Positions 1 through 14,209 of a stretch of 64,000 nt of DNA are shown here, in pieces. Made by a program: the position numbers and the translations under genes. Numbering within the stretch: the first letter of the stretch is position 1; the number at the start of each line of letters is the position of its first letter. Origin of the DNA: Coriobacteriia bacterium (GTDB taxonomy: Bacteria; Actinomycetota; Coriobacteriia; Anaerosomatales; JBAZZO01); assembly GCA_041658765.1 (NCBI GenBank), contig JBAZZO010000010.1:2360-66359 (forward strand), in the 5' to 3' direction. The notes under the pieces are model-generated. The model did no database searches. It saw only the letters and a list, made by a program, of their open reading frames with translations, and was not told the origin of the DNA.

Positions 1-1063
1 CGTCGTGTAGCGGCGATTGACACGACTCCGTGCGACGAAGCCTGCGACTGATAACGTCCTCCGCGAACACTGGAAAGAGCCATTGCTTCTCGCTAGATCC
101 AACCCGTTGCAGGATATCGTCGATGTCCAGAAGGTCGAAGTCTCGAGCCTTCTCAAGGTGGTACGAAGTCCCGAAGACCAAGGTGTCGCGCCACCCATAG
201 GGCCTTGTGCCTATCCGGTACTTCACGCGAGGATCGCGAAGACTCAGGGCTTTGTTAACCATCTGCCGCATGTTCGCTCCGAGCGAAGATGATGCACGCC
301 CGATACGCGAAAGTTGATCGTACTCGTCGATTCGGACGTAGACGGACGTCTCGTCCGAGACCACTCCCGCCTCAATCAAGGCCGATGCTGCGACCGAGAT
401 AGGCTCACCAATTGGGCTTATGCTTTCGGCCAGTCGGTTCGGCAATTCGCTGGAGCTGTAGTTCAAGTACCTTCGGTAGTCCGCGATTCTGCCACGCAGC
501 CGTTCCTCAAGTTGCTCTCGGTTCGTGACTCCATCAAGGTACCCCTGCCAGACATCACTCACCGCAATTCGCTTGGCGGCCTCGTCCATGCTCGCAGCCG
601 AGTAGCCCATCCCGATTCCTCGTCCGACAGCGCCCTCCAACTCAGTCCCAAGCGTGTCTGCCGAGTTCAGCATGTCGCGCACCAGCCAGTAGTTGAGGAA
701 GTCACCGAAGTAGATGGCCGCCAGGACTTCAGGGTCCTCCGATTCCGTCTTCGGAAGGCGCTGCCCGAAGTCCGCCGCAGCACTCCTCCGCAGGCTCATC
801 CCCGCCCCAATGAACGTCGAAAGGTCATCCGGGGCAGGAAAGGGAATGCCTCTGCGGTAGTAGGCCACCCGTACCTCTGGCTTGAGCAGGGCAAGAAGCA
901 TCGTCTTTCCTGCCCCCTCGGTTCCCTGCACAACCACATGGGTGTTCTTGAACATCGCAAGCGCATGATCCATCAGCTTCGGACTGAAGACATCGACGAA
1001 GTGCTCGTCGCTGACCATCTCGCCCACGTAGAGTTCTTCAAATGGGTTCTTCTCTCGTGCCAC
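1..1063 (-). CDS. P-loop NTPase (AAA/ORC-Cdc6-like), C-terminus outside window
   Basis: Not in the ORF track because it runs off the window. The reverse strand from GTG at 1063 stays open to position 1. That GTG lies 5 nt after the stop of 1069..2067, with a GAGGGTG SD-like sequence upstream. Translation: VAREKNPFEELYVGEM...HVVVQGTEGAGKTMLLALL (Walker A) ... SVYVRIDEYDQL (Walker B-like hhhhDE). The + strand ORFs 17..292 and 314..1120 are its shadows. Confidence 0.6.
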   Translation of the reverse strand, partial: MAREKNPFEELYVGEMVSDEHFVDVFSPKLMDHALAMFKNTHVVVQGTEGAGKTMLLALLKPEVRVAYYRRGIPFPAPDDLSTFIGAGMSLRRSAAADFGQRLPKTESEDPEVLAAIYFGDFLNYWLVRDMLNSADTLGTELEGAVGRGIGMGYSAASMDEAAKRIAVSDVWQGYLDGVTNREQLEERLRGRIADYRRYLNYSSSELPNRLAESISPIGEPISVAASALIEAGVVSDETSVYVRIDEYDQLSRIGRASSSLGANMRQMVNKALSLRDPRVKYRIGTRPYGWRDTLVFGTSYHLEKARDFDLLDIDDILQRVGSSEKQWLFPVFAEDVISRRLRRTESCQSPLHD

Positions 1064-1068
1064 CTAGA

Positions 1069-2067
1069 TCACACCCTCGATGAGCGGGGAAAAAGAGGTT
1101 TCCATGTGTCGGACGAGTAGTGCAGGAGCGGAAGCGAGTTGTCAGGAGTGTTGCTGTACATCACCAATAGCGACCCAGTTCCCTCGAAGCCATCTGGCCC
1201 GTACGGCTTCACGCATGGGTCTGGAGCGTGCTGACCGGTCATCGTCGTGTAGAGATCCGCTGCAATCTGCCTGATTCGAGGAAACAGGTCGCCCTGCGTC
1301 CCACTTGCGGGCAAGAGAACGGTCGCCCCACCCCGCAAGACAAAGACGGGACTGAACGTTAGCCGGCCGGGGTGAGCAGCTTGCAGTTCGAGTCCGCGTT
1401 GGTGCCCGTCTGGGCACACCAACAGCGGCACAAGCAGCACTTTGAATCTGTCGGGTAGCGCCAAGGCGCACGTAACGGCCGAGTTCATTTGGGATCCGCT
1501 GCCGACGAAGTCCTCTAGGAGTATTAGAAAGCGGAACCCGCAGGAGTCCATGTGGTTCTCGATCTTGGCCAGGTCACCAAGTCCACGTAGCGAGTACCAG
1601 TCGGGCCGAAAACGCGCGCCCTCGATGTTGTTCGCATGGTAGAAGCTGGCGATGTCCATGCTGTCAGTGACCGGACAGTACCAAGACAGCCTGGATGCGG
1701 CCTCTATTCTCTCGGCCAAGTCCTCATCGTCCAGGGAGAATGGCTCGCATTGTTCCAGCAGCCAGCGGGAAACCGGACCACGGAACGCAGCTCGGTACAG
1801 CGACACGAAGTCGCGGAAGCTAGCGAACATCAACTCGGGAACGAGGGCCAGCAGCAGTCTCTGTCGATCATCATCGACACAGTCGAGCCAATGGCGAAGC
1901 CGTGTCGTGAAGGGCGGGGCGGGAGGCCCGACCGCGGGGAGGTACTCACAGAAACGGTAATCGGCGAGAAACCGAACTTGCTCCAGCGTCGAGTGCGCCG
2001 TCGGGCCTTGCTGATCCTGACCCTCGGACCATCGGCTCACCCGATCCTGCAGACTCTCGTAAGGCAC
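1069..2067 (-). CDS. phosphoribosyltransferase-like (PRTase-fold) protein with unassigned N-terminal domain
   Basis: Track ORF, 332 aa. FRFLILLEDFVGSGSQMNS fits the PRPP-binding loop pattern of type I PRTases (hydrophobic x4, two acidic, xx, G/S-G-S/T). The N-terminal ~150 aa has no motif I recognise. There is a 5-nt gap to the downstream NTPase gene. Confidence 0.55.
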   Translation of the reverse strand: MPYESLQDRVSRWSEGQDQQGPTAHSTLEQVRFLADYRFCEYLPAVGPPAPPFTTRLRHWLDCVDDDRQRLLLALVPELMFASFRDFVSLYRAAFRGPVSRWLLEQCEPFSLDDEDLAERIEAASRLSWYCPVTDSMDIASFYHANNIEGARFRPDWYSLRGLGDLAKIENHMDSCGFRFLILLEDFVGSGSQMNSAVTCALALPDRFKVLLVPLLVCPDGHQRGLELQAAHPGRLTFSPVFVLRGGATVLLPASGTQGDLFPRIRQIAADLYTTMTGQHAPDPCVKPYGPDGFEGTGSLLVMYSNTPDNSLPLLHYSSDTWKPLFPRSSRV

Positions 2068-2396
2068 ATCGACCTCCTCCGCCTGTCAGGATAGCAGGTG
2101 CCCGCAGTTTCCTTGGCCCTTCGGTGCGGGCGTGTCTGATACGAGTGCCGAGGCTACGTGACGAACCGAACGTGCCTGCACGGTTTGGTGCGATGGCCCA
2201 AAGGAGCCGCTGGAGACCAGCGGCGTGAATCGCCGCCCACATTCGCATTACCGTTGCAACGCACAGGGACTTGCCCAGAACTCCCGGATTCGAGACCGAC
2301 AGACTGGGAGCCCTGCTGTCGCCGAACCAGTCGGGCACGTCGCGCTTCTCTGGCTTGACGTCGCCGAAGTTTCACTGATATGCTCTGTTTCACCGA

Positions 2397-3476
2397 TTGG
2401 TGAAAGGTGCATTTGCAGTGAAAGAACCTGAGATTCTCGAGAGACTCCCCGCCGCGCTGCAAGCATGCCTCGACGGGGTGCCGAAGACCGCGATCGGATC
2501 CGTGGAGCGAGAAGTCCGCGCAGGCGGCGCGACAGCCGACCTGGTGGTGCGGCTCCAGCTGCTCGGGCGCGCACGCTCCATGGTCGTCGAGGCGAAAAGC
2601 AGCGGCCAGCCGAAGAGTGCTCGAGTAGCGGTCGACCAGCTGCGACGTCTGCTCCTCGACGAGCGACTGAAAGGCGCCTACCCCGTCTTTGCGGCGCCCT
2701 ACGTGTCCGAGGCCGCCAGGATCATCTGTCGCGATTCTGGGTGTGGATACTTCGACCTGGCCGGGAACTGCCGCTTCTCTCTGGATGGCGTCTACATCGA
2801 ACGGGCGTCTGGGCCGAACCCCTTCAAAGAGAACCGGGGTGAGCCTTCGATCTTCTCAGCGAAGTCCTCTCGGATCCTGCGGCTGCTTCTCAACGAGCCT
2901 CGCCGCGAGTGGCGGGTGCAGCAGATCTCAAAGGTCGCTGGGGTGAGCATCGGTCTGGCATCCAGGATCAAGCGCCAGCTCGAGGAGCGGGAATGGATCG
3001 CGGCCGGAGAGGGCGGGGTGAGGCTTGCCCAGCCCGAGGTCATGCTCCAAGCGTGGGCCGCTGCGTACAGCTACAAACAGAATCGCGTCTTCCAGTACTA
3101 CACGCTCGACGAGATCGGCGAAGCGGAGACGTCCGTCGCGGAATGGTGCCGGGAGAGCGGCGTGGACTACGCACTGACCGGTTTCTCCGGCGCACGCCTG
3201 CTCGCCCCTCGAGTGCGGTACGACCGAGCCACCATCTACGTGAGTTCCCGCCTCGGCAGTGCAGCCGACGGTGCCCGGCTGAAACCGGTCGACACGGGAG
3301 CCAACGTTCTGCTGCTCCAGCCATTCGATGACGGCGTCTATGACGGGTCGGAGTATCGTTACGGACTTCGGACGGTCTCGGCCGTGCAGCTCTATCTGGA
3401 TCTACGTTCCATGCCGGGACGCGGAGAAGAGGCCGCTCAGGAGATCCTCGAGCGAGAGCTGCGGCCCTCATGGTGA
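2397..3476 (+). CDS. AbiEi-like wHTH antitoxin/regulator with extra N-terminal nuclease-like domain
   Basis: Track ORF, 359 aa (TTG 2397; GTG 2400 is possible). Central wHTH-like segment: SSRILRLLLNEPRREWRVQQISKVAGVSIGLASRIKRQLEEREWI. The N-terminal part contains D...VVEAK, reminiscent of PD-(D/E)xK. The stop overlaps the start of the next gene (3470..3476). Confidence 0.5.
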   Translation: MVKGAFAVKEPEILERLPAALQACLDGVPKTAIGSVEREVRAGGATADLVVRLQLLGRARSMVVEAKSSGQPKSARVAVDQLRRLLLDERLKGAYPVFAAPYVSEAARIICRDSGCGYFDLAGNCRFSLDGVYIERASGPNPFKENRGEPSIFSAKSSRILRLLLNEPRREWRVQQISKVAGVSIGLASRIKRQLEEREWIAAGEGGVRLAQPEVMLQAWAAAYSYKQNRVFQYYTLDEIGEAETSVAEWCRESGVDYALTGFSGARLLAPRVRYDRATIYVSSRLGSAADGARLKPVDTGANVLLLQPFDDGVYDGSEYRYGLRTVSAVQLYLDLRSMPGRGEEAAQEILERELRPSW

Positions 3477-4294
3477 AGAGCAGACTGGACTACCCGCCCG
3501 ACGCGGTCGAAGCAGCGAAGTCGGTGCTGGTGGAACTCGCCCACATCCTCGGCGAGTACCGCGACGAAATGGTCATCGTAGGCGGATGGGTGCCGTTCCT
3601 CCTCATGCCGGATGCTGCCGGGCACGTCGGCAGCACCGACGTCGACATCGCGCTCAACCACCTGGCGGAGACCGACGAGGTCTACGCCAGGATCAGCGAG
3701 TTGCTCAGGGACCACGGCTACGTGCAGGATGCACGCCAGCCTTTCATCTGGTTCAAGGACGTGGGGTTCGAAGGCGCGGATGCGGCAAGGGTCGAGGTCG
3801 ATTTCCTCGCCGGAGAGTACGGCGGCACGAACAAGGAGCACCGCACTCAGCGCATCCAGGACATGAGACCGCGGAAGGCGCGGGGCGCCGATCTGCTTCT
3901 CGATGGATCCGTCGAGCGTCAGATCGAGGCACGACTGCCGAACGGCGCGATCGACATGGTCACGGTGAAGGTCGCTGGCGTGGTGCCCTATCTGGTCATG
4001 AAGAGCTCGGCGCTGGGTTCCAGGGTCAAGGAGAAGGACGCGTACGACATCTGGTTCACGTTGGCCAACTACCCCGGCGGTGCCGCTGCTGTCGTCGAGG
4101 AGTTCAAGCTCTTCGCGACCCATGGGCTAGTACTCGAAGCTCTTGCACTCCTCGACGACAAGTTCGCCTCGCCACAGCATTTCGGTCCCGTATCGGTCGC
4201 CCTCTTCCTTGAAGCCGAAGGCGAGGAGGCTGAGCGTATCAAGCGCGACGCATACGAGCGGGTCCGGGCTCTCATCACAGAGCTTCGCGGCTGA
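3470..4294 (+). CDS. nucleotidyltransferase, AbiEii/MNT-like toxin candidate
   Basis: 274 aa. VIVGGWVPFLL...GSTDVDIAL matches the minimal NTase signature G[GS]-x(9-13)-DxD. It overlaps the upstream wHTH gene by 7 nt, which is the typical AbiE arrangement. Confidence 0.6.
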   Translation: MVKSRLDYPPDAVEAAKSVLVELAHILGEYRDEMVIVGGWVPFLLMPDAAGHVGSTDVDIALNHLAETDEVYARISELLRDHGYVQDARQPFIWFKDVGFEGADAARVEVDFLAGEYGGTNKEHRTQRIQDMRPRKARGADLLLDGSVERQIEARLPNGAIDMVTVKVAGVVPYLVMKSSALGSRVKEKDAYDIWFTLANYPGGAAAVVEEFKLFATHGLVLEALALLDDKFASPQHFGPVSVALFLEAEGEEAERIKRDAYERVRALITELRG

Positions 4295-4295
4295 C

Positions 4296-4360
4296 ATGGC
4301 CGGCCCCACATCGATCGAGTGGACCGAGGCGACCTGGAACCCGGTCACTGGGTGCCACCG
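4296..4360 (+). pseudogene. N-terminal remnant of a DUF5131 (phage Gp37/Gp68-like) gene
   Basis: MAGPTSIEWTEATWNPVTGCH reproduces the conserved N-terminus IEWT..TWNP.TGC of that family. Similarity stops after ~21 codons, and the rest of track ORF 4143..4511 is unrelated. Confidence 0.45.
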
Positions 4361-4581
4361 TGACCGTCTCACGCGCGCGGTCGATGAGCGTAACCACTTC
4401 GTCCTCGATGTGATGTCGAAGCCACGACTCTGGGTGACAGGTGATCGGGATGAGCTCGAGCGACTGGCTCGAGAAGGGTCGCATCAAGCGTCAAGCAGCG
4501 GATCGCGCTGAGATCCAGCGGCTGTTGGCGGTTGTCGACCGGGACCTCGCGGACGCGAGCGATCTCATGGTTAGGCCGATG

Positions 4582-4636
4582 GTTTCCTTAGTCCAAGGAC
4601 ACATCTGGCATATTGTTTCCTTGCGCCAAGGACACA
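4582..4636. repeat. tandem imperfect repeat, 2 copies, 32-bp period
   Basis: GTTTCCTTAGTCCAAGGACACAT (4582-4604) and GTTTCCTTGCGCCAAGGACACAT (4614-4636) are 20/23 identical. They sit in a locally AT-richer non-coding patch. Confidence 0.7.
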
Positions 4637-4721
4637 TTACGAAGACATCGACGTCGAAGGCGGCATCATTCACGTCATGCCCGCACGGGCTTGGATGCTA
4701 GGGGTGTAGGCGCCCTGCCGC

Positions 4722-5660
4722 CTATCCGACTAGATCGCGAACGCTCTGCGCTGCGACAGGCGAGATGCGATCGAGCGCGGAGGCCGACTTCGCCACCCGG
4801 CTCGCCCACGACTTTCCCCTCACGGCAAGCGCCTCCCAGGCAAGAACGAGATCCCCCGGCCGGTCTGCGTGCAGCACCTCGAGTATCTGCGCCGCCTGTG
4901 AAAGGTCCTTCTCCCGCTTCGGCTGCATCGCAACAGGACGCTCCCCCGCGATCATCAACTTGTGGAGAGCGAACCGCGCCGCATCCGGCACGTTCACCGC
5001 GACGACCCCGCCGCCGACCACTGCCGCCCTCACGGACGAGTCGATGAGATAGTCCAGGAATCTCAAGGGCTGCGCGGCGGCGGCGAACCTGGGCAGGCTC
5101 ACGGGACGCGATCGGGCCCTTGCGGCCGGCGTCAGAAGGTCCACCCGCAAGCTTCGCCCCCGCACCTTGAACGAGGTGGTCGGACTCTTGGGATCGAGAC
5201 CGGGGACCGGCAGGAACCCCATCTCCAGGCTATCCCGTGCTGAAGGCAGGTCGGCGTCGACGCCCGGAACCGCGATATCGAGCTTGGGATCGGCCGCTAT
5301 GTCGACATCCTGAGTCCTCAGAGAGGTGCCCCAGCGGACCCCGAGAAGGTTGCCGAGCACGACGAACGCGTGAGTCCCGACAAGGACTCCGCCGGCGTGG
5401 AACACCCCCGCGTCCGCGAGCGCACGAAGCACTCGGGCCGAGGGCGCATCGGTGACCATCGCGCCACCTGCGCGCAGCAGAGCCGCCAACCGCTCGATGG
5501 ATCGTTGGTCGGCGGCGACGTTGGCTCTCCCCTCGGCGAACCGATCGGCCAACTCGTCGAGCGCGGCGTCCCGACGGCCCAGATAGGTCTGGCGCTTCGT
5601 CCCGCCAGGCCCCATGTGCTGGAAGTAGTAGTACTCCTGGCCCTTCACCATCTTCGTCAC
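4722..5660 (-). CDS. GSU2403-family nucleotidyltransferase-fold protein (start possibly further upstream, up to 5765)
   Basis: Track ORF, 312 aa (GTG 5660). ...KGQEYYYFQHMGPGGTKRQTYLGRRD... and the overall layout match my recollection of this family. The frame stays open and protein-like upstream (LQRQPLEVQTIYAELLEQIAVYEASRTIGHTAGSFVTK). There AAGGAGG lies 7 nt before a CTG at 5765, with no ATG/GTG/TTG available. Confidence 0.55.
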   Translation of the reverse strand: MTKMVKGQEYYYFQHMGPGGTKRQTYLGRRDAALDELADRFAEGRANVAADQRSIERLAALLRAGGAMVTDAPSARVLRALADAGVFHAGGVLVGTHAFVVLGNLLGVRWGTSLRTQDVDIAADPKLDIAVPGVDADLPSARDSLEMGFLPVPGLDPKSPTTSFKVRGRSLRVDLLTPAARARSRPVSLPRFAAAAQPLRFLDYLIDSSVRAAVVGGGVVAVNVPDAARFALHKLMIAGERPVAMQPKREKDLSQAAQILEVLHADRPGDLVLAWEALAVRGKSWASRVAKSASALDRISPVAAQSVRDLVG

Positions 5661-5782
5661 GAAGGAGCCGGCGGTATGTCCGATGGTACGCGAGGCCTCA
5701 TAGACAGCGATCTGCTCAAGAAGCTCGGCGTAGATCGTCTGGACTTCGAGCGGCTGACGCTGCAGGGGTTCACCTCCTTGTA

Positions 5783-5816
5783 GTTATACGCACAATACGT
5801 CGATGCTGCGTATAAC
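5783..5816. promoter_or_regulatory. perfect 10-bp inverted repeat (operator or hairpin)
   Basis: GTTATACGCA (5783-5792) and TGCGTATAAC (5807-5816) with a 14-bp spacer. It is AT-rich and lies between the stop of the oxidoreductase gene and the SD of the NTase gene. Confidence 0.3.
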
Positions 5817-5828
5817 ACAAGTCGAGCG

Positions 5829-6749
5829 CTACGCCACGTTGATGATCACGTTGCCGCGCTTGTGCCCCGTGTCGACGTACCTGTGCGCGTCGACTATGTC
5901 GTCCAGTGCATAGGTGCGATCGATCACCGGCCTGATCTCACCGCGCGCCGCCAACTCGGCGAGCAACACCAGATCCTCGCGCCGGAGCTTCGGTGAGCCG
6001 TCGTCGACCGAGACGCAGGCTCCGCCGGGAGCCAGCACTCGCCGGCACCTCCGAAGGGCACTGGCGCTCTTGTTCTTGCCCACGGCGTCGAAGATCAGGT
6101 CGTAGCGCTCCGCCCCGTCCGCGAAGTCCTCGACGGTGTAGTCGACCACCCTCGTGGCGCCGAGAGATGTCACAAGCTCCACGTTCGCAGTGCTGCAGAC
6201 ACCCGTCACCTCCGCGCCGAGGTGCCGGGCGAGCTGCACCGCCGACGTGCCCACGGCCCCGGACGCCCCGAAGACGAGGACGCTTTGTCCCGCTCGAACG
6301 CCGGCCTTGCGAAGGTAGCTGAGAGCGAGGAGGCCACCGTAGGGAATGGCTGCCGCCTCCTCGTCGGTGAGGTTGGCCGGTCGCGTTGCCAGAAGTCCGT
6401 CTTCCGGCCAACACACGTACTGCGCATACGTCCCGAAGAGGTGCCGATTGAAGCCGAAGACGCGGTCGCCCGCCTTGAACGACCTAACGTCCGGTCCGAC
6501 CGCATCCACCACCCCTGAGAGCACCATGCCGAGAACCGGTTGCCTCGGTGCGTTCCAACCGAGCACGAGCCGCGCCATGATCCGGTAAGCGGGACTCAGT
6601 CTCAGCCCCCGGACGTAGGTATCACTCGATGCCACGGGGGTAGCCAAGATGCGTATGCGCACCTCGTTCTTCCGAGGAGCTGGAGTCGCGATCTCCTCGA
6701 CCCGGAGAACCTCAGGCGGGCCGTAGCGCGTGCAAACTACTGCTCTCAC
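5829..6749 (-). CDS. NAD(P)H-dependent medium-chain dehydrogenase/reductase (quinone oxidoreductase-like)
   Basis: Track ORF 5829..7037 trimmed to GTG 6749, which forms a GTGA overlap with the stop of the upstream gene. VRAVVCTRYGPPEVLRVEEI...VLVFGASGAVGTSAVQLARHLGAEVTGV is the MDR fold with a GxGxxG dinucleotide site. Confidence 0.75.
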   Translation of the reverse strand: MRAVVCTRYGPPEVLRVEEIATPAPRKNEVRIRILATPVASSDTYVRGLRLSPAYRIMARLVLGWNAPRQPVLGMVLSGVVDAVGPDVRSFKAGDRVFGFNRHLFGTYAQYVCWPEDGLLATRPANLTDEEAAAIPYGGLLALSYLRKAGVRAGQSVLVFGASGAVGTSAVQLARHLGAEVTGVCSTANVELVTSLGATRVVDYTVEDFADGAERYDLIFDAVGKNKSASALRRCRRVLAPGGACVSVDDGSPKLRREDLVLLAELAARGEIRPVIDRTYALDDIVDAHRYVDTGHKRGNVIINVA

Positions 6750-7447
6750 TCTGCGCCCTTGAGGGAAGCGATCGCGGATGGGCTGAACCCCTTGGCGATC
6801 AGCCACACCGCCAGAACCATCTCCTGCAAGAAGATCGGGAGATTCAAGACGATCTGGGGCGCCGACATGGGATCGATGGCCTGGAACACGACCAAGATGC
6901 TTGCCGTGAAGCCCAGCGTGACTGCAACGATCCCCCAACCGGACAACCATCGAGGGATGAGCCTCGATCGATAGAACACGAGGTAGTACATCAGGCCGGC
7001 TGGGTAGAAGGCCAAGGTCCCTGCCATGCCCGCCCAACTCCGGACCGCCATCAGCAGTGCGCCTGAGGCTTGAAGGTACGACGAAGCCGGAGCGCCGGCC
7101 TCCACGAGCCCACGACTCAATGTCACCATCGATAGCACCGCGATCGCCCCGATGCTGTAGAGAACTGCCTCGATGATCCTCAAGCCGACGGCGCCGAGCG
7201 ACAGACCCTCGCTGTATCGCCGCAACACGGGATACAGCGCGATCGCGATGCTGGCGGACGCGAAGAACGCGACCAGCCCGAAGAGCGCTCCCGCAGCCAC
7301 CTGGTTCTGGTGTGCGGCGATCTTGGCAAGGATGTCGGCCCCTTTGAGGATCGGATCCAGAAGCACCACCCTGCCGAGCAAGCTTGCAGTCGTAGCGACT
7401 ATGAAGAGCACTCCTGCGACTACCGCTGTTCGCCTGTCTTTGCTCAT
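6746..7447 (-). CDS. DUF4386-like polytopic membrane protein (paralog 1)
   Basis: Paralog of 8041..8742. Shared features: N-terminal DRR.A...GVL(F/Y)IV and C-terminal L(I/V)PRWLS.WG...QEMVLA(V/I)WLIAKGFSP. ATG 7447 is preferred over TTG 7471 because of an SD-like GGGAAG and because it aligns with the paralog start. Confidence 0.6.
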   Translation of the reverse strand: MSKDRRTAVVAGVLFIVATTASLLGRVVLLDPILKGADILAKIAAHQNQVAAGALFGLVAFFASASIAIALYPVLRRYSEGLSLGAVGLRIIEAVLYSIGAIAVLSMVTLSRGLVEAGAPASSYLQASGALLMAVRSWAGMAGTLAFYPAGLMYYLVFYRSRLIPRWLSGWGIVAVTLGFTASILVVFQAIDPMSAPQIVLNLPIFLQEMVLAVWLIAKGFSPSAIASLKGAE

Positions 7448-7549
7448 GATCGACTTCCCATTCCTCGTCAACTCTCGTGTGTCCCGTCCTGAGAACCTGA
7501 CCGAGACGTGTCAGGTTGAAGCTCTCTTGCTAGGTGGCGTGCTCCACCC

Positions 7550-7882
7550 CTAGACGAATGCCACAACGGCCAGGGTGCCTACGACGGCCGCTTCGGCGGC
7601 GAGAGCGCCCGCAGCAGCAGGACCGATCTTCCGGTACGTGTAGCCCGCCATGACCGAAAGCAGCACGAATCGCACGACCTGGCCCACGGCCGGTCCGCCA
7701 GCCTGAAGTCAGGCGAAGCCGGACGCGACCACGAGGCCCCCCGCCACCAGACAGACTCCCGCCAGCACCCGCGGCGACAACTGCTTGCGCCTGCCCCTCG
7801 CGGCGTACCAGATGGCGAAGGCGACGAACACGACGATCCCCGCGAGCATGGTTGCGATGGGCACAAAGAACTTGCTGTCCAC
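7550..7882 (-). pseudogene. small membrane-protein ORF interrupted by an in-frame TGA
   Basis: Not in the track because both halves are <60 aa. GGAGGTGA SD, then GTG 7882: VDSKFFVPIATMLAGIVVFVAFAIWYAARGRRKQLSPRVLAGVCLVAGGLVVASGFA, then TGA (7709-7711). The same frame continues LQAGGPAVGQVVRFVLLSVMAGYTYRKIGPAAAGALAAEAAVVGTLAVVAFV to a TAG at 7550-7552. Confidence 0.3.
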
Positions 7883-8040
7883 GCCGATCTCACCTCCGTC
7901 TGACGATGCTTGTCCCGTGCGGCGTGCCTGGCGTCTGGCGCTCGACCGCGCGCCGACACTGGCATAGAGCGCAAACCTTGAACGTACGTCAGGTTGACGT
8001 GCCTGCTACGCGCGCCCCAGCCCGCGAAGCCGGCCGCATC

Positions 8041-8742
8041 TCACGCAGCGAGTGGCAGCCGATCGCCTTCGGGAGCGATCGTGCCGGGGCTGAAGCCCTT
8101 GGCGATCAGCCAGATCGCGAGCACCATCTCCTGCACCGCGAGCGGGAACATCAGGAAGTCGAGCGAGAGGCCCGCCATCCGCGCGAGGGGCGCTACGAGG
8201 TAGAAGACCGCTCCGACAAGTCCCCAGATCGAGAGCCATCGAGGGACGAGTCGCGCGCGAAAGAGCAGCCAGTAGAACATGAGAGCGCCGATGACGAAGG
8301 GCAGCGCGATGAGCTGTTCCCACACCAGCCCCTCGGCGGTCTGCAGCATCGCCGCGACCGGAGCGGCCGCGGCCGACGGCGCGGCGCTCATGGCGATGAG
8401 CACGAGCCAGATGAATGCGCTGATGACGTACGTCATGCCCTCGAGTGCTCCTCGGAAGATGACGTAGCCCATCGAGAGCACTTCGCTGAAGCGGCGGCCG
8501 ATCGGATAGAAGACCGCGGGCAGAGCCGACAGCGCGAAGCCCATGGTGAGCACGAGGAGCGCGCCGACGACCGTCGCGGTGCGGTGAGCGGCGATCTGCG
8601 CCAGGATGTCCGTGCCGGCGGCGAACGAAGGCATGATGGCCATGCCTAGCACGCCCGAGGCGGTGCCGACGATGTAGAGCACGCCGATGATGGTGGCAGC
8701 CCGGCGATCGGTGATCGCGCCGTCCGTTCGCTTAGCCGACAT
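8041..8742 (-). CDS. DUF4386-like polytopic membrane protein (paralog 2)
   Basis: Track ORF, 233 aa, hydrophobic multi-pass, paralogous to 6746..7447. It is the last gene of the ArsR-led operon. Confidence 0.6.
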   Translation of the reverse strand: MSAKRTDGAITDRRAATIIGVLYIVGTASGVLGMAIMPSFAAGTDILAQIAAHRTATVVGALLVLTMGFALSALPAVFYPIGRRFSEVLSMGYVIFRGALEGMTYVISAFIWLVLIAMSAAPSAAAAPVAAMLQTAEGLVWEQLIALPFVIGALMFYWLLFRARLVPRWLSIWGLVGAVFYLVAPLARMAGLSLDFLMFPLAVQEMVLAIWLIAKGFSPGTIAPEGDRLPLAA

Positions 8743-8998
8743 CGCGCATCATCTTCTCGATGGACTCGACCGACGTGCGGATCGCGCCGATGTCGGCCTG
8801 CATGCTCGACTGCGTCTCGCGCGTCTCTTGGGCGAGTCTGGTGTACTCGGCGTTCAGCTCCTCGAACTGCGCGCCGCTGCGCGACTTGATCTCCTCCATC
8901 TGGATCTGGTGACGCCGACGCGAGGGCGTGGTGACCACGCTGATCCCCAGGATCACGAACATCACGACGAGAAACGCCGCGGGTCCATCGATCGTCAT
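8732..8998 (-). CDS. hypothetical single-TM coiled-coil protein
   Basis: Track ORF, 88 aa. N-terminal TM helix (AAFLVVMFVILGISVV) followed by a charged helical region. It overlaps both neighbours (4 nt and 11 nt), consistent with operon membership. Confidence 0.45.
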   Translation of the reverse strand: MTIDGPAAFLVVMFVILGISVVTTPSRRRHQIQMEEIKSRSGAQFEELNAEYTRLAQETRETQSSMQADIGAIRTSVESIEKMMRDVG

Positions 8999-9333
8999 TG
9001 CTTTCCCCTTCCGGTTGGTTCGCTGTCCGCGCTCAGGGTCTTCGTCGCATCGGTGACGCGCTCGGGCGTCAGGTGCTCGTCGAAGTCCGTCACGCTGAAG
9101 AAGCGAAGCGCCTTTCCGTCTTCCGAGATCTCGTGGCGTCCGACCACGAGTCCCGCCTTCTCCAGTACCTGCAGGTGCATGTGGAGGAGCGGACGTCCGA
9201 TCCCGAGCTCCCGGGCCAACTCGCTGACGTAGCTCTCACGACTTCTCAGGGCTGCGAGGATCCGCAGCCGATGAGGGTTCGCAAGGGCGCTCAGCATCTG
9301 GAGCAACTGGTCGCCGGTCCGATCGTCCGTCAT
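8995..9333 (-). CDS. ArsR/SmtB-family HTH transcriptional regulator
   Basis: Track ORF trimmed to ATG 9333 (AAAGGAGAGGAC SD). LSALANPHRLRILAAL...YVSELARELGIGRPLLHMHLQVLEKAGLV is the ArsR-type wHTH. Confidence 0.75.
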   Translation of the reverse strand: MTDDRTGDQLLQMLSALANPHRLRILAALRSRESYVSELARELGIGRPLLHMHLQVLEKAGLVVGRHEISEDGKALRFFSVTDFDEHLTPERVTDATKTLSADSEPTGRGKQ

Positions 9334-9549
9334 GTCCTCTCCTTTACCTGTCAGCGTATCCTGACACGTGATGTTCCAACGTGTCAACACCAATTCGCGA
9401 AGAATCTTCCGCCAGGGGCAAAGGAAGAAGCCCCGGTCAAAGCGACCGGGGCTTCGATCAGTTCGAGTGCGGGCGCGATCCTCCGTTTGCGTGTGTCAAC
9501 GCCGGGTAGTATTCTCGGTACTACCATCGGCACTACCGCAAGGACCACC

Positions 9550-9825
9550 ATGGGCAAGATCAACATCTCGCTTCCCGACGGCATGCTCGAGGAGATCGAC
9601 CGCCGAGCAAGCGCAGCCGGCGCCACCCGCAGCGGCTTCCTCCAGGACGCCGCGGGACACTACCTGACCGCGCTCGACGAAGAGGCGGCGTGCGCCGCCC
9701 GGGCCAAGCGTGTTGGTCACGCACTGCAGAAGATGCGCTCGCTCGCGCCGGTGGTGGGCGCGCCGGGCTCGGCGAAAGCCATCCGCGAGATCCGCGATGC
9801 ACCGTCGCGTTGGGAGCAGCGGTGA
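9550..9825 (+). CDS. vapB: ribbon-helix-helix (CopG/VapB-type) antitoxin
   Basis: C-terminal 91 codons of track ORF 8998..9825. MGKINISLPDGMLEEIDRRA...RSGFLQDAA is an RHH motif. GTGA overlap with the downstream PIN gene. Confidence 0.7.
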   Translation: MGKINISLPDGMLEEIDRRASAAGATRSGFLQDAAGHYLTALDEEAACAARAKRVGHALQKMRSLAPVVGAPGSAKAIREIRDAPSRWEQR

Positions 9826-10247
9826 GCGGCAGCGGTCCCCGCTATGTGGTTGTCGACAGCTCGGTCGCCTTCAAGTGGTTCTGCAGCGACGACGAGAGTT
9901 CCGTCGATGAGGCCCTCGCGCTGTTCGCCGACCACCTCTCGGGCCGCATCACACTCATCGCACCGGCCCACCTGCCCGCCGAGGTGCTCAATGCCCTGGG
10001 ATGCCGCCCGAAGGTGACCTCGACGCAACTGGTCACCGCCGCTGAAGGTCTGGCCGAGAGCGAACTGCTCTACCCTGCGTGGGACCGTGATCTCCTCTGC
10101 GAGGCCGCGGTGCTCGCTCGCAAGCACAAGCTCACCATCTACGACGCACTCTTCCCTGCGCTCGCGATCCAGCTCGGCTGCGAGTTGGTCACCGCGGACA
10201 GGGCTCACGCTCGGCTGAAGGAGTGCGCGGTCCGGCTACTGCCCTGA
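9822..10247 (+). CDS. vapC: PIN-domain ribonuclease toxin VapC
   Basis: Track ORF 9690..10247 trimmed to GTG 9822. YVVVDSSVAFKWF..., ...TIYDALFPALA... and ...LVTADRAHARL supply the conserved acidic residues of the PIN fold. Confidence 0.75.
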   Translation: MSGSGPRYVVVDSSVAFKWFCSDDESSVDEALALFADHLSGRITLIAPAHLPAEVLNALGCRPKVTSTQLVTAAEGLAESELLYPAWDRDLLCEAAVLARKHKLTIYDALFPALAIQLGCELVTADRAHARLKECAVRLLP

Positions 10248-10275
10248 GACGCCACAAGCCCCCGCCGGGCGCCGA

Positions 10276-10671
10276 CTACTCATGCTCCGCGAAGAGACGG
10301 CCATGAACCGCGAGCTCGACCACCGGGACTGCTTCGACTCTGTCGGCGAGCGGATAGCGCTTCTCACCAGGGTAGAGCACGGCGACGCGATCCAACCCCA
10401 AGTCATCCAGAGCGATCCTGATCGACGGCGTCATCTTCGGCGCATCGGAACGCTTGCACTCCACCCCCACCAAGCACTCTCCCCGGCGCAGGATCAGGTC
10501 GATCTCGGCACCCTGATGGGTCGCCCAGAAGAACGCCTCGTCATGCGGCTCGCTCGCCAACACCTGCTCGATCGCGAACCCCTCCCAGGACGCGCCGAGC
10601 TTCGGATGACTCACCAAGGCCTTCGGAGTGTCGATGTGGTCGGACAGCACCACGTGAATCCGCCATCGCAC
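10276..10671 (-). pseudogene. C-terminal fragment of an AAA_14/DUF4143 ATPase gene
   Basis: Only the DUF4143-like C-terminus is present (..HPKLGASWEGFAIEQVLA...). The Walker-A N-terminal two thirds seen in the full-length paralog 10806..12131 are missing. The break coincides with a decayed tRNA-end repeat (10697-10728). Confidence 0.5.
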
Positions 10672-10696
10672 AACTGTTTTTCATGGTGTTCCGGAT

Positions 10697-10728
10697 CCGG
10701 CCTGACCTGCGATTCCGGTAAGGTGGCC
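10697..10728. repeat. decayed copy of the tRNA-Met 3' flank plus 3' end (putative old att site)
   Basis: CCGGCCTGACCTGCGATTCCGGTAAGGTGGCC versus 13834-13869 CCGGTCTGACCTGCGATTTCTTTGGTAGCGGGGGCC. The first 19 nt match 18/19, then similarity to the tRNA 3' end is gapped. Confidence 0.45.
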
Positions 10729-10805
10729 ATGGTGACCCTACGCGAAGTACAGATTCCGCAGAATGCGCCCTTGACAGACGGACACCTGCGCTCTAGCGTG
10801 GCGGC

Positions 10806-12131
10806 ATGAGCCTGCACCCGGTACTCGACGAGAAGCTGAGCGCTGCACTGGCGGAAGTACCGCCGGTCGCGCTCACCCGGCGCGACGCCCGGCTGCCAGC
10901 CGTGGCCGGCAAGGTGCACGCGGTGATCGGGATGCGGCGCGCGGGGAAGACGATGTTCCTGCGCCAACTGCTGGACGAGCGCCGGGCTACCCTACCTGCT
11001 CCGCAGGCGGTCTATCTCAGCTTCGACGACGACCGGCTAGCCGGCCTCGAGTTGGAGCAGCTCGACTTCCTGCTCGAGGAATACTACCGGCGCTATCCCG
11101 CGATGCGAGGGCGCAAGACAGTGAGCTGGTTCCTCGACGAGATCCAGCTCGTGCCCGGCTGGGAGCGTTTCGTCCGACGGGTACTGGACTCAGAGAGAGT
11201 CGAGATCGTCGTCTCCGGCTCCTCGGCGCGTATGCTCTCGCGCGAGGTCCACACCTCCCTGCGCGGTCGCGGGATGGCGACCGTCATCCGGCCCTTCAGC
11301 TTCCGTGAGTTCCTGCGCTACCGAGGTGAGGAGCCCGGCAGCGAACCTCGACGCTGGACACCGGCCGAGCGGTCGCTGATCGAGAAGCGCTTTCGGGAGT
11401 ACCTGGTCGAGGGCGGGTTCCCCGAGACGCAGGGAATACCAGCCACGCTTCGAATCGAGCTCTTGCAGGGCTACGTGGATACCGTGCTCTTCCTCGACGT
11501 TGTCGAGCGCTACGGGGTGTCGCAGGTGGCGGCCCTCCGCTGGCTAGTGCGTCAATGTTTGCGCAATCCGGCCGGGAGCTTCAGCGTCCACCGCCTGCAC
11601 CAGGACCTGAAGGCCCAAGGGCACGGCGTGGCGAACGAGGCCGTGCACGCGATGCTCGGCCATCTCCTGGACGCCTTCCTGCTCAGCGCCGTGCCGCTTG
11701 CGACCGAATCGGAGCGCCGTCGCAACTCGAACCCGCGCAAGCTCTATCCCGCAGACCCTGGCCTCATCAAGGCCTTCGACGCCAGCGGCCGCTCGAACGT
11801 CGGACACGCACTCGAGACCGCCGTGCTCAACGAACTGGAGAGGCGCGGGATGGAGGTCGGCTACGTGAAGACGGGTGACGGGCTGGAGGTGGACTTCCTC
11901 GCGCGCCGACCGGCTGGCGGAGAGGAATTGATCCAGGTGTGCGCAGACCTGTCGAGTCCAGAGACGCGCGCGCGTGAGCTGCGAGCCTTGACCGCAGCAG
12001 CGGAAGACCATCCGCGTGCTACGCAACGATTGCTGGTGCTCGACCGGGATGCGCTCGCACGCGCCGACGCGCCAGGGGTCGACGTACTGCCTGCCTACGA
12101 GTGGCTCCTCGCGGCACCGGAAGACGACTGA
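10806..12131 (+). CDS. AAA+ ATPase with DUF4143 C-terminal domain (AAA_14 family)
   Basis: Track ORF, 441 aa. AVIGMRRAGKTMFLRQ is the Walker A. WFLDEIQ is the Walker B. The C-terminal part is DUF4143-like. Confidence 0.7.
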   Translation: MSLHPVLDEKLSAALAEVPPVALTRRDARLPAVAGKVHAVIGMRRAGKTMFLRQLLDERRATLPAPQAVYLSFDDDRLAGLELEQLDFLLEEYYRRYPAMRGRKTVSWFLDEIQLVPGWERFVRRVLDSERVEIVVSGSSARMLSREVHTSLRGRGMATVIRPFSFREFLRYRGEEPGSEPRRWTPAERSLIEKRFREYLVEGGFPETQGIPATLRIELLQGYVDTVLFLDVVERYGVSQVAALRWLVRQCLRNPAGSFSVHRLHQDLKAQGHGVANEAVHAMLGHLLDAFLLSAVPLATESERRRNSNPRKLYPADPGLIKAFDASGRSNVGHALETAVLNELERRGMEVGYVKTGDGLEVDFLARRPAGGEELIQVCADLSSPETRARELRALTAAAEDHPRATQRLLVLDRDALARADAPGVDVLPAYEWLLAAPEDD

Positions 12132-12137
12132 ACCAGC

Positions 12138-12199
12138 CCTTCGTTGGACAGCCCGTTGGACACTCGTGCGCCAAAGCGAACAGGCCAGACACGGTTACC
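12138..12199. repeat. 62-bp direct repeat, copy 1
   Basis: CCTTCGTTGGACAGCCCGTTGGACACTCGTGCGCCAAAGCGAACAGGCCAGACACGGTTACC. It has 3 mismatches to 13773-13834. It starts 6 nt after the ATPase stop. Confidence 0.85.
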
Positions 12200-12340
12200 G
12201 GAAAAAACCACACGCGCACTCCCACGAGACCAGCTTACCTTTGACGCCACGTGGGAGGCAGGTCTGACACGCAATCGGCGGGCGGTCACCAGCTTACGGG
12301 GGTCCGCGACGCGGAAGGCTTGCCAACGTTCTCCAGCTTA

Positions 12341-12382
12341 TTTAGACTTCAACCACGAAGTCTAAATAGCGCTCAACGCTAT
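12341..12382. promoter_or_regulatory. two adjacent palindromes upstream of fic
   Basis: TTTAGACTTC-aaccac-GAAGTCTAAA (12341-12366) is immediately followed by ATAGCG-ctcaa-CGCTAT (12366-12382). Both are AT-rich and lie 25-65 nt upstream of the fic start. Confidence 0.3.
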
Positions 12383-12407
12383 TCAACTCGGCTGAGTAGG
12401 GGGACTG

Positions 12408-13559
12408 ATGCGCCGAGGACTGTCGGGGAGGTACGAGGTCAGCACGATCGGCGGCGAGACCTTTCGCGCCTTCGTGCCGGAACCGTTGCCACCGAATCCC
12501 CCGCTTGACCTGTCCGCACTGCAAAGATCTCTCGAGCGCGCGTCCATCGCCATTGGCCGGCTGGACAGCGTTTCGACCCTGCTGCCGGACACGGCGCTGT
12601 TCCTATACACCTACGTACGCAAAGAGGCGGTGCTGTCTTCGCAGATCGAAGGCACCCAGTCCTCCCTCTCGGACTTGCTGCTGTTCGAACTCGAGGAAGC
12701 GCCGGGCGTACCGTTCGACGACGTGGTAGAAGTCAGCAACTACGTTGCCGCGCTGGATGAAGGCCTTGCTCGGCTGAGGGGCGGCTTCCCCATCAGCGCA
12801 CGACTCATTCGAGAGATCCATGCGGTTCTCCTCTCCCGAGGTCGCGGCAGTGAGAAGCAGCCCGGTGAGTTCCGCCGGAGTCAGAACTGGATCGGCGGGA
12901 CGAGGCCTGGGAACGCGGTCTACGTGCCTCCGCCTCACGAGGAGGTCCAGCCGTGCATCGCCGCGTTAGAGCGATTCCTCCACGACGAGGGCTCGAGCCT
13001 GCCCCTTCTGGTCAAGGCGGCGCTTGCACACGCCCAGTTCGAGACCATCCACCCTTTCCTTGACGGCAACGGGAGAGTGGGCCGACTCTTGGTCACGTTG
13101 CTGCTGTGCGAGGGCGGGGTGCTTCGTGAGCCGCTGCTCTATCTCAGTCTGTACATGAAGCAGAATCGGGATGAGTACTACCGTCTGCTCAGCAGGTGTC
13201 GAACCGAGGGCGAATGGGAGGCGTGGGTCGCCTTCTTCCTCGAGGGAGTCGCGGAAACGGCCGACGACGCGGTCGGGACGGCGCGCAGCCTGGTCGGCAC
13301 GTTCGAGAGTGATAGGCGACGGATCCAGGACCTCGGACGCAAGGCCGGCTCGGCTCTGCGCGTGCACGACGCTCTGAAGTCCAGGCCGGTCCTGCTGCTG
13401 CCCGATGTCGTGACACGCTCCGGGCTGTCGTTCCCAGCCGCTGCATCCGCGATGGACTCCCTTGAGAAACTGGGAATCGCTCGCGAGGTGACCGGCAAGA
13501 AGCGGAACCGCGTGTTCGCGTACTCGGAGTACCTTCGCCTGCTCTCGGAAGGAACCTGA
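12408..13559 (+). CDS. fic: Fic-family protein (AMPylase-type) with N-terminal inhibitory motif and C-terminal wHTH
   Basis: Track ORF, 383 aa. HPFLDGNGRVGR is the canonical Fic motif HxFx(D/E)GNGRxxR. SSQIEGT matches the (S/T)xxxE(G/N) auto-inhibition helix. AGGGGG SD. Confidence 0.85.
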   Translation: MRRGLSGRYEVSTIGGETFRAFVPEPLPPNPPLDLSALQRSLERASIAIGRLDSVSTLLPDTALFLYTYVRKEAVLSSQIEGTQSSLSDLLLFELEEAPGVPFDDVVEVSNYVAALDEGLARLRGGFPISARLIREIHAVLLSRGRGSEKQPGEFRRSQNWIGGTRPGNAVYVPPPHEEVQPCIAALERFLHDEGSSLPLLVKAALAHAQFETIHPFLDGNGRVGRLLVTLLLCEGGVLREPLLYLSLYMKQNRDEYYRLLSRCRTEGEWEAWVAFFLEGVAETADDAVGTARSLVGTFESDRRRIQDLGRKAGSALRVHDALKSRPVLLLPDVVTRSGLSFPAAASAMDSLEKLGIAREVTGKKRNRVFAYSEYLRLLSEGT

Positions 13560-13772
13560 CCCCGATGGCCCTGAACCCCATCGTCTTCACCGAGAACGTC
13601 GTCAGGAGCTTCCTGCGCTACCCGCTGACGGCCTACTCGCTGGCCAATCGCAGCACACGCCTGTAGCCGACGGCCTGAATCACCGATCGGCTTCGAGCGG
13701 AATGGGTGATCGGCTTGGACCGGAATACGCAGCTAGGGCAGCGTCAGGCGGTGCGGCGGCGGTCTGTCCCTA

Positions 13773-13834
13773 CCTTCGTTGGACAGCCCGTTGGACACTC
13801 GTGCGCCAAAGCAAACAGGTCAGACACGGTTGCC
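13773..13834. repeat. 62-bp direct repeat, copy 2 (21 nt from tRNA 3' end)
   Basis: CCTTCGTTGGACAGCCCGTTGGACACTCGTGCGCCAAAGCAAACAGGTCAGACACGGTTGCC, 59/62 identical to copy 1. Confidence 0.85.
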
Positions 13835-13855
13835 CGGTCTGACCTGCGATTTCTT

Positions 13856-13856
<1 letters not shown>
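13817..13856. terminator. bidirectional hairpin terminator downstream of tRNA-Met
   Basis: AGGTCAGAC (13817-25) pairs with GTCTGACCT (13837-45) around an 11-nt loop. On + it is followed by GCGATTTCTTT, and on the other strand by GTTTGCTTTGG. Confidence 0.45.
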
Positions 13857-13932
<76 letters not shown>

Positions 13933-14039
13933 ACGATTCCGGACTTCTCGCGCTAGCACACACCTTCTCCACAAGCGCGGACTAGGATGTTAGCACCCGC
14001 TCCAGTACGAGGCAACACGTGCCGATGTTCACATTCGGC

Positions 14040-14209
14040 AAGGTATTCGCAAGGAACCGGTAAGACGGCAAGCGTACGATCGGGGAGCCCACGGATTCTA
14101 AACCGGTTCTCGCTGGTAAGGGCCTCGCAAGCATGGTAAACTGTCGAACTGCCTTCTCCCCGCGGCGTGCCGCGGGATCCGGCAGGGGTGACGAGCAGGA
14201 AGGGACGGA
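14040..14209 (+). promoter_or_regulatory. structured 5' leader of the NlpC/P60 gene (possible riboswitch, class unresolved)
   Basis: GAACCGGT (14054-61) pairs with ACCGGTTC (14102-09), enclosing CGGGGAGCCCA (14081-91). GC hairpin CCCGCGG-cgtg-CCGCGGG at 14059... see finding; the second hairpin is at 14159-14176. CCTTC (14152-56) is complementary to the SD GAAGG (14199-203). Confidence 0.25.

Follow-up and report, generated by a model that had tools for sequence, protein, structure and literature searches.

What is the role of a phosphoribosyltransferase (PRTase)-like protein encoded in tandem with a P-loop nucleoside triphosphatase (NTPase)? This question is raised by two genes at the left edge of a 64,000-nucleotide stretch of DNA from a Coriobacteriia bacterium (assembly GCA_041658765.1, contig JBAZZO010000010.1), which is referred to below as the window. 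An earlier reading of these genes, made without database searches (the sequence-only reading), had presented them as a two-gene pair. In a survey of about 90 related loci, 80 of them from genomes, we found that the two families are strictly co-localised as neighbours across genomes, as that reading had expected, but that the unit is larger than a pair. It consists of a PRTase gene, an NTPase gene and a gene encoding a protein with domains of the CARF (CRISPR-associated Rossmann fold) type, and it is headed in nearly all relatives by the gene of a 5-methylcytosine (m5C) DNA methylase. This canonical unit is a self-contained mobile four-gene cassette, with a layout similar to that of restriction–modification (R-M) systems and no recognisable nuclease.

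Three abutting genes at the window edge

Within the window, the locus presents the following features:

1069..2067, minus strand: gene of the PRTase-like protein (332 aa, Pfam PF24390, PRTase-CE), an intact open reading frame (ORF)
1489..1536, minus strand: phosphoribosyl pyrophosphate (PRPP)-loop-like motif FRFLILLEDFVGSGSQ, PRTase residues 178-193
1129..1191, minus strand: C-terminal motif G293-x14-P308-D-N-S-L-P313 of the PRTase, common to retron type III-A PRTase effectors
1..1063, minus strand: first 354 codons of an ORC/Cdc6-like AAA+ NTPase (Pfam PF24389), with a GTG start at 1063
902..925, minus strand: Walker A motif GTEGAGKT, NTPase residues 47-54
317..343, minus strand: Walker B region VYVRIDEYD, NTPase residues 241-249
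2068..2396, no strand: 329 nt upstream of the PRTase gene, at the place that the m5C methylase gene occupies in relatives; the divergent AbiEi gene comes next

The PRTase gene starts with GTG, 5 nt from a Shine-Dalgarno sequence (GGAGGAGG, 2073-2080). The NTPase ORF opens 5 nt past the PRTase stop and leaves the window. The parent contig (L001), an 80-kb metagenome contig of ENA, runs 2.4 kb beyond the window edge and then stops; extending the sequence leftward, as the sequence-only reading had suggested, recovered the full NTPase of 686 aa and a third gene, identified below as CARF6. On this contig, the three genes are co-directional and abut in the following order:

L001 10001-10999: PRTase gene
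L001 11005-13065: NTPase gene
L001 13062-14108: CARF gene

The probable GTG start of the third gene overlaps the TGA of the NTPase gene (GTGA) and gives a product of 348 aa; this start is supported by the homologues, whose alignment begins near residue 5. None of the three ORFs is truncated or interrupted, and the strong Shine-Dalgarno sequence and the tight coupling of the genes are kept. Beyond the window, a protein-like ORF of 86 aa without family match overlaps the end of the CARF gene (L001 14059-14319). This ORF could represent a small fourth gene, or it could be spurious.

The PRTase matches PF24390 with 83.2 bits for a cut-off of 27, its residues 58-328 covering model positions 2-253 of 253. 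The NTPase matches PF24389 with 67.1 bits for the fragment within the window and 118.7 bits for the full protein (cut-off 27), residues 36-636 covering positions 28-566 of 571. Both being well above the Pfam thresholds, the two ORFs are real and not a chance pair. The 332-aa protein with its PRPP-loop-like motif and the GTG-initiated NTPase carrying GTEGAGKT and VYVRIDEYD were thus correctly recognised from the letters, while the separate unassigned N-domain of about 150 aa that had been attributed to the PRTase has to be abandoned, since the Pfam model spans residues 58-328 and the AlphaFold2 model (predicted local distance difference test, pLDDT, 91.2) is a single compact unit.

The window PRTase keeps all of the near-invariant columns of its family (27/27; columns at least 95% conserved among 80 homologues). 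E185, D186, G191 and Q193 in the PRPP loop and G293, N306, P308 and N310 in the C-terminal part are invariant in this alignment, as are G47, G50, G52 and K53 of Walker A in the NTPase alignment. The best PDB fold matches of the PRTase model are orotate and uracil PRTases (OPRT/UPRT); they are weak (E >= 0.02), and good superposition is confined to a core of about 65 residues around the PRPP loop (local-core RMSD 1.9-2.7 A). Profile searches of PDB sequences returned no relative for the PRTase, NTPase or CARF protein. Within the NTPase, only the P-loop matches any solved protein; in the search with the PRTase, FRFLILLEDFVGSGSQ weakly matches the OPRT PRPP loop IIEDVVTSGSS. Among viral structures (BFVD), the sole strong structural relative of the PRTase is A0A8S5PFV6 of Siphoviridae sp. 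ctvNP11, a protein of 512 aa annotated as PRTase-CE domain-containing (TMq 0.57). Phages thus also encode relatives of the PRTase, built to a longer architecture.

The sequence-only reading had related the PRTase to effectors of retron type, and this relationship was borne out. The PRTase_III-A hidden Markov models (HMMs) of PADLOC match residues 293-330 (E 9.5e-13). According to one account of the retron-Eco11 effector (PMC12746101), this protein carries the PRPP motif VVILTDTIGSGNQ and a Gx14PNNxP motif, and its activation leads to a PRPP drop and abortive infection. FRFLILLEDFVGSGSQ follows the same pattern as VVILTDTIGSGNQ, and the features shared with retron type III-A are a PRPP loop of the form h-h-h-h-[TE]-D-x-[IV]-G-S-G-x-Q and a C-terminal G-x14-P-[DN]-N. 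On sequence grounds, the PRTase and the retron type III-A effectors are homologues and, by analogy, its output would likely be the same, i.e. a collapse of the PRPP or nucleotide pool. However, the HMM match is limited to the C-terminal 40 residues or so, and the PRTase has other partners here, namely a tandem CARF protein and an ORC/Cdc6-like ATPase, joined in relatives by an m5C methylase. The locus is not a canonical retron, as had been stated: the neighbours are the NTPase and AbiEi, no reverse-transcriptase family was found among the scanned neighbouring proteins, and no adjacent msr/msd was detected, Rfam finding only tRNA in 1-14500 with its limited coverage of retron non-coding RNAs.

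The third protein was assigned by the PADLOC CARF6 model PDLC01923 (E 1.8e-67), residues 6-315 corresponding to model positions 2-297 of 299; neither Pfam, including its CARF models, nor NCBIfam gave a match. The predicted model of a homologue (P0122; pLDDT 90.5) shows two tandem Rossmann-like domains and resembles tandem USP domains, Can1 (6sce, Foldseek TMq 0.51) and Csa3. The CARF signature reportedly described by Makarova et al. in 2014 reads [DN]x[ST]xxx[RK]. In this family, a signature D-x-S-x3-K-R is conserved as LDVSSLPKR, and the second domain conserves G-P-K-x-x-S. The window CARF protein keeps 26/27 near-invariant columns. Can1 of type III CRISPR likewise places two Rossmann-like CARF domains in one polypeptide, Csa3 is comparable for a single domain, and the CARF signature is conserved; the protein studied here differs in having no fused effector domain and no Cas10 or cyclase nearby, and in matching only the CARF6 census model.

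The cassette across genomes and its methylase

The loci were collected by a degenerate-pattern scan, derived from a 35-sequence PRTase alignment and run on one genome per species. Gene order was then established from six-frame ORFs searched with iterated HMMs of the PRTase, NTPase and CARF protein. The loci come from Acidobacteriota, Planctomycetota, Verrucomicrobiota, Bacteroidota and Alpha-, Beta- and Gammaproteobacteria, with further ones in Desulfobacterota, Chloroflexota, Actinomycetota, Saccharibacteria and the archaeon Nitrosocosmicus; culturable strains of Pseudomonas, Sphingomonas, Rhizobium and Ruegeria are among the carriers. When clustered at 50% identity (E <= 1e-30), the family falls into about 314 groups. 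In every one of the 80 loci whose contig reaches far enough, the PRTase, NTPase and CARF genes succeed each other in this order on one strand, abutting or overlapping. The exceptions correspond to contig ends (L002, L043, L031, L056, L077) or to broken copies (L003, L014, L072 and others). In the interrupted copies, the CARF, PRTase or NTPase gene carries frameshifts or insertions of 1-2.3 kb (L003 10293-12638, L072 5816-6911, L014 8796-10059), which indicates that the cassette decays in some genomes.

In six diverse relatives, the gene of a DNA methylase of about 395 aa (PF00145) ends 3-20 nt before the PRTase gene. An m5C methylase gene is located directly upstream, in the same direction, in 78/80 genome loci and in 7/7 further metagenome loci; of the two remaining genome loci, L042 is truly devoid of methylase, and L074 is truncated by the start of its contig, which precludes a judgement. 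The closest relatives (P0003, P0005, P0007) also have this upstream gene. The methylase matches TIGR00675 (dcm) and its motifs are all canonical for m5C enzymes (FSGCGG, PCQ, ENV, QxRxR, REAARiQGFpD, GNAVPPP). Its target recognition domain (TRD), between motifs VIII and IX, is as conserved across phyla as the catalytic core (alignment of the methylases of 79 loci, L002-L098). Such conservation suggests one target motif common to the whole methylase family, which would be unusual for R-M systems.

Vsr and HhH-GPD (T:G) glycosylases are classic companions of genuine DNA m5C methylation. In about nine loci, one of them is the product of the very next gene after CARF, which implies that the cassette methylase really makes m5C in DNA:

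L089 12059-12514: Vsr, confirmed by TIGR00632 (about six loci by clustering)
L004 8354-9049: HhH-GPD glycosylase
L084 14010-14678: HhH-GPD glycosylase
L090 5427-6098: HhH-GPD glycosylase

With a methylase at the head of the PRTase-NTPase-CARF unit, the likely logic shifts from an NTPase sensor plus an effector to a methylation-linked, R-M-like cassette. The roles of "sensor" and "nucleotide-targeting effector" that the sequence-only reading had given to the NTPase and the PRTase are to be regarded as putative.

The neighbour survey revealed no further conserved gene around the cassette. The nearest neighbours (n = 129) mix integrases (7/129), transposases or resolvases, defence-type genes (AbiE, Fic, DruA, PIN and OLD/UvrD in relatives) and ordinary metabolic genes. 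These data bear on the possibility that the PRTase is a housekeeping enzyme of nucleotide salvage or competence (pur/pyr/ComF) lying by chance next to an unrelated ATPase. All that the protein offers in favour of this explanation is a PRPP-loop-like motif and the weak OPRT/UPRT fold matches. No NCBIfam equivalog of any housekeeping PRTase was retrieved; the gene is strictly linked to those of the NTPase, the CARF protein and the methylase; its flanks are not conserved, its phyletic spread is patchy, and the window copy is found in a low-GC island. The linkage data refute the housekeeping explanation, to which we attach practically no probability. The lack of an equivalog, the variable flanks and the patchy spread show that this is not a housekeeping PRTase, and the module was rightly taken for one of conflict type.

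The same survey weighs on a second explanation, in which the cassette would be an accessory module of cyclic oligoadenylate (cOA) signalling: a type III CRISPR or CBASS system encoded at another place in the genome would supply the cOA, the tandem CARF protein would sense it and activate the PRTase, and the methylase would be incidental. The CARF assignment itself and the resemblance to Csa3 and to Can1, which is activated by cyclic tetra-adenylate (cA4), fit this scheme, and CARF effectors are presented in reviews as generally responsive to cOA. However, no cyclic-oligonucleotide synthase (cyclase, Cas10 or CD-NTase) is present among the conserved genes or among the 25 PADLOC families most often matched by the 129 nearest neighbours. 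Moreover, a methylase that is present in about 98% of the loci is not incidental, and the cassette is self-contained and moves between phyla. We therefore see very little chance that it depends on foreign cOA.

As a separate observation, genes for Thy1/ThyX (flavin-dependent thymidylate synthase) are found repeatedly in unrelated phyla, where they lie just downstream of the cassette and in the opposite orientation. They represent 5/129 nearest neighbours, plus one ThyA, and include:

L006/L082 14526-15956, minus strand: Thy1/ThyX
L084 14689-15321, minus strand: Thy1/ThyX
L090 6123-6763, minus strand: Thy1/ThyX, with others elsewhere

They may be accessory to the cassette or reflect a coincidence of insertion sites.

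The window copy and its surroundings

No methylase gene or remnant was detected by tblastn, with three methylases of the family as queries, in the 64-kb window or in the parent contig (nothing below E = 4). The only other methylase-less locus was found in a Litorimonas metagenome-assembled genome (L042, 6902-10935). It has an intact set of three genes with a normal NTPase, and the upstream neighbour is a divergent gene of 232 aa without known family. In the collections searched, the closest relative of the window copy shares 47% identity with it and lies on a 1.4-kb contig; in the metagenome scan, identity does not exceed 41%.

The window NTPase keeps 46/55 near-invariant columns. The nine departures (G41T, Q247E, E249D, E323S, K450P, E451D, F487L, R544L, K637Q) make it the top outlier of 77 sequences at these columns, the runner-up having 4 departures and the median being 0. 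Two of them fall in Walker B, where the family consensus is IDQYE (D-Q-Y-E, residues 246-249) and the window copy alone reads IDEYD. As Q247E and E249D together turn an unusual DQYE into DEYD, the ATPase is changed and not obviously broken. Since the NTPase of L042 is normal, the link between the loss of the methylase and the divergence of the NTPase is only suggestive.

A copy without methylase and with such an NTPase (9/55 columns lost) could also be a decaying relic, inactivated after methylase loss, in which the NTPase has undergone relaxed or suppressor evolution; other loci have indeed decayed by insertion or frameshift (L003, L014, L072). We consider this unlikely, without dismissing it: against decay, the three ORFs are intact and full-length, the near-invariant columns of the PRTase (27/27) and of the CARF protein (26/27) are kept, Walker A is intact, the change from DQYE to DEYD gives Walker B a canonical DE, and both the strong Shine-Dalgarno sequence and the tight gene coupling persist. 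The window copy may be either rewired to act without methylation, reliant on a methylase encoded elsewhere in the genome, or attenuated.

The GC content rises from 0.59 in the cassette to 0.63-0.67 as far as about 14 kb and then to 0.70-0.75, and the step from about 0.65 to more than 0.70 falls just past a tRNA-Met gene. Genes for AbiEi, NTP_transf_8, PIN, Fic and AAA_14/DUF4143 proteins lie between the cassette and this tRNA gene:

2397-3476: AbiEi_2 gene, divergent from the PRTase gene
3470-4294: gene of 274 aa overlapped by the preceding one, with only weak AbiEii similarity
4722-5660, minus strand: NTP_transf_8 nucleotidyltransferase (182 bits)
8041-13932: stretch with genes of DUF4386 paralogues, of a PIN protein and its HicB-like partner, of an AAA_14/DUF4143 ATPase and, at 12408-13559, of a Fic protein
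13856-13932: tRNA-Met

Two AbiE-like modules may therefore stand side by side between 2397 and 5660. The sequence-only reading had placed the locus in a tRNA-anchored island next to an AbiE-like pair. The GC step, the tRNA-Met gene and AbiEi agree with this, and a tRNA-anchored low-GC island is plausible; however, no integrase was seen in the island stretch, and the left boundary falls past the end of the contig.

Possible function and relation to known systems

No named system corresponding to the cassette was found in PADLOC v2, as a system-level model, or in NCBIfam (June 2026); the latter includes recent anti-phage models such as DS-32 and covers neither the NTPase nor the CARF protein. 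No description of the cassette was found in the literature searched; an earlier published computational mention is possible. The components are already catalogued, as PF24390 and PF24389 (adjacent accessions) and as the CARF6 model of PADLOC and the CARF census. The module is therefore uncharacterised, as first proposed, with regard to a named system, and not with regard to its proteins, two of which have Pfam families and the third a census model. What stands out is the combination of a methylase, a PRTase effector and a cyclase-less CARF protein in a methylation-linked cassette of known conflict-system domains.

Several known systems share part of this layout. As in type II m5C R-M systems with Vsr, a Dcm-type methylase leads the operon and, in some loci, a Vsr or T:G glycosylase ends it. 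In contrast to these systems, three non-nuclease genes take the place of a recognisable restriction endonuclease, the methylase TRD is conserved and not diversified, and the window copy has no methylase. BREX (BrxC) and Ssp (SspC) systems, as presented in two accounts (PMC12839542, PMC10853773), also combine a self-marking DNA modification enzyme with an AAA+ protein of the ORC/Cdc6 clade. They are mobile and island-borne as well, and the killing mechanism of BREX is still unresolved. The cassette differs from them by a Dcm-type m5C methylase instead of an N6-adenine or phosphorothioate enzyme, by an ATPase of 670-700 aa with its own Pfam family, by the lack of PglZ, BrxA/B/L and SspABDE, and by the PRTase and CARF protein, which those systems do not have. 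ShosTA and DS-32, as far as the sources cited below describe them, likewise use a PRTase-family enzyme as the toxic arm, paired with a nucleotide-handling partner; their partners and gene number are different.

Direct candidates were rejected. For DS-32 (a DefensePredictor system of PRTase plus NADAR), DS32_1 (NF053875) scored 19.9 bits for a cut-off of 250, and there is no NADAR gene. For ShosTA, a PADLOC scan at E <= 1 gave only PRTase_III-A for the PRTase and CARF6 for the third protein. The match to mad8 of MADS (E 6e-4) covers the P-loop only.

The interpretation that we favour, with evenly divided confidence, is that the locus is a methylase-less copy of a horizontally mobile, R-M-like anti-invader cassette without nuclease, in which the PRTase is the effector. 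The methylase would mark self DNA with m5C. The AAA+ protein would be a DNA-facing, ATP-dependent switch that surveys DNA and assembles on unmarked molecules, and this assembly would turn on the PRTase-like enzyme. Like the effectors of retron-Eco11 and ShosT, the latter would consume PRPP or make a phosphoribosyl product, and replication would be starved. Finally, the tandem CARF protein would bind a nucleotide ligand and tune or end the response. Candidate ligands are the product of the PRTase, cOA from other systems and cyclic-phosphate RNA ends, which one source proposes as the ligand of RtcR-like CARFs (PMC11090510).

Several points weigh against this interpretation. Genomic context is all that argues for a defence role of the cassette, and many of the flanking genes are housekeeping ones; no copy was found in PLSDB plasmids or INPHARED phage genomes. 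There is no recognisable nuclease or nucleotide cyclase in the cassette, which leaves the killing step and the CARF ligand unaccounted for. As no cyclase belongs to the cassette, the origin of this ligand is the widest gap in the scheme. Judging from the model, the weak fold matches (E >= 0.02) do not guarantee the catalytic competence of the PRTase. Typical R-M systems diversify their specificities, whereas the TRD of this methylase is conserved. In addition, the persistence of the cassette without methylase at two loci, one of them (L042) with a normal NTPase, argues against a simple logic of lethal restriction.

The lack of a nuclease could instead mean that restriction proceeds by base chemistry. 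In this scheme, the PRTase would act on unmethylated DNA itself, either removing bases in the manner of a glycosylase or modifying the DNA by phosphoribosyl transfer; the AAA+ protein would serve as DNA loader or motor, and m5C would protect self. The R-M-like architecture, with the methylase first and no nuclease, is compatible with this, and the PRTase reaction is a substitution at ribose C1'. PRTase-fold proteins are also described as recurring beside DNA-handling partners, namely ComFC/ComFA and DprA, in one source (PMC5512222), and DS-32 is described as coupling a PRTase to a NADAR protein resembling DarG, the antitoxin that reverses DNA ADP-ribosylation. On the other hand, the DS-32A similarity is just 19.9 bits, no DNA-binding domain was identified in the PRTase protein, and the activities measured for relatives, in the accounts cited here, are only PRPP depletion (retron-Eco11) and disruption of purine metabolism (ShosT). 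We hold this scheme to be rather improbable.

Another explanation starts from ShosTA, in which ShosT (a PRTase) and ShosA (DprA-like) are reported to form a toxin–antitoxin defence pair (PMC11961720, PMC12961424). The cassette could be a toxin–antitoxin or addiction module of this type, in which the ATPase and the Rossmann-fold (CARF/SLOG-like) protein restrain a PRTase toxin and the methylase serves a different purpose, for instance epigenetic regulation. Toxin–antitoxin-like genes abound in the window island, and the three genes persist without methylase at two loci. However, neither ShosT nor ShosA was matched in PADLOC at E <= 1, and the strict conservation of four genes together with the Vsr or glycosylase companions points to an integral role of DNA methylation. 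A module of this type has, in our estimation, a slight probability.

A bolder variant of the favoured interpretation, which we put forward as a distant prospect, is an epigenetically gated immunity without nuclease, in which the PRTase, and not a cyclase, would make a phosphoribosyl-derived second messenger that the tandem CARF protein reads or degrades; the window copy would then be a variant whose gating is rewired through the NTPase. If true, CARF signalling would here operate without Cas10 or CD-NTases and be coupled to m5C self-marking.

If the cassette is a working defence, it would raise the question of what CARF domains sense when there is no cyclase, and it would wire methylation-based discrimination between self and non-self to a metabolic effector, acting on PRPP or nucleotides, instead of DNA cleavage. 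With four genes in about 5 kb and a wide distribution, the family is compact and tractable. The window copy is a natural methylase knock-out with a uniquely diverged ATPase, and it hints at which component couples to methylation.

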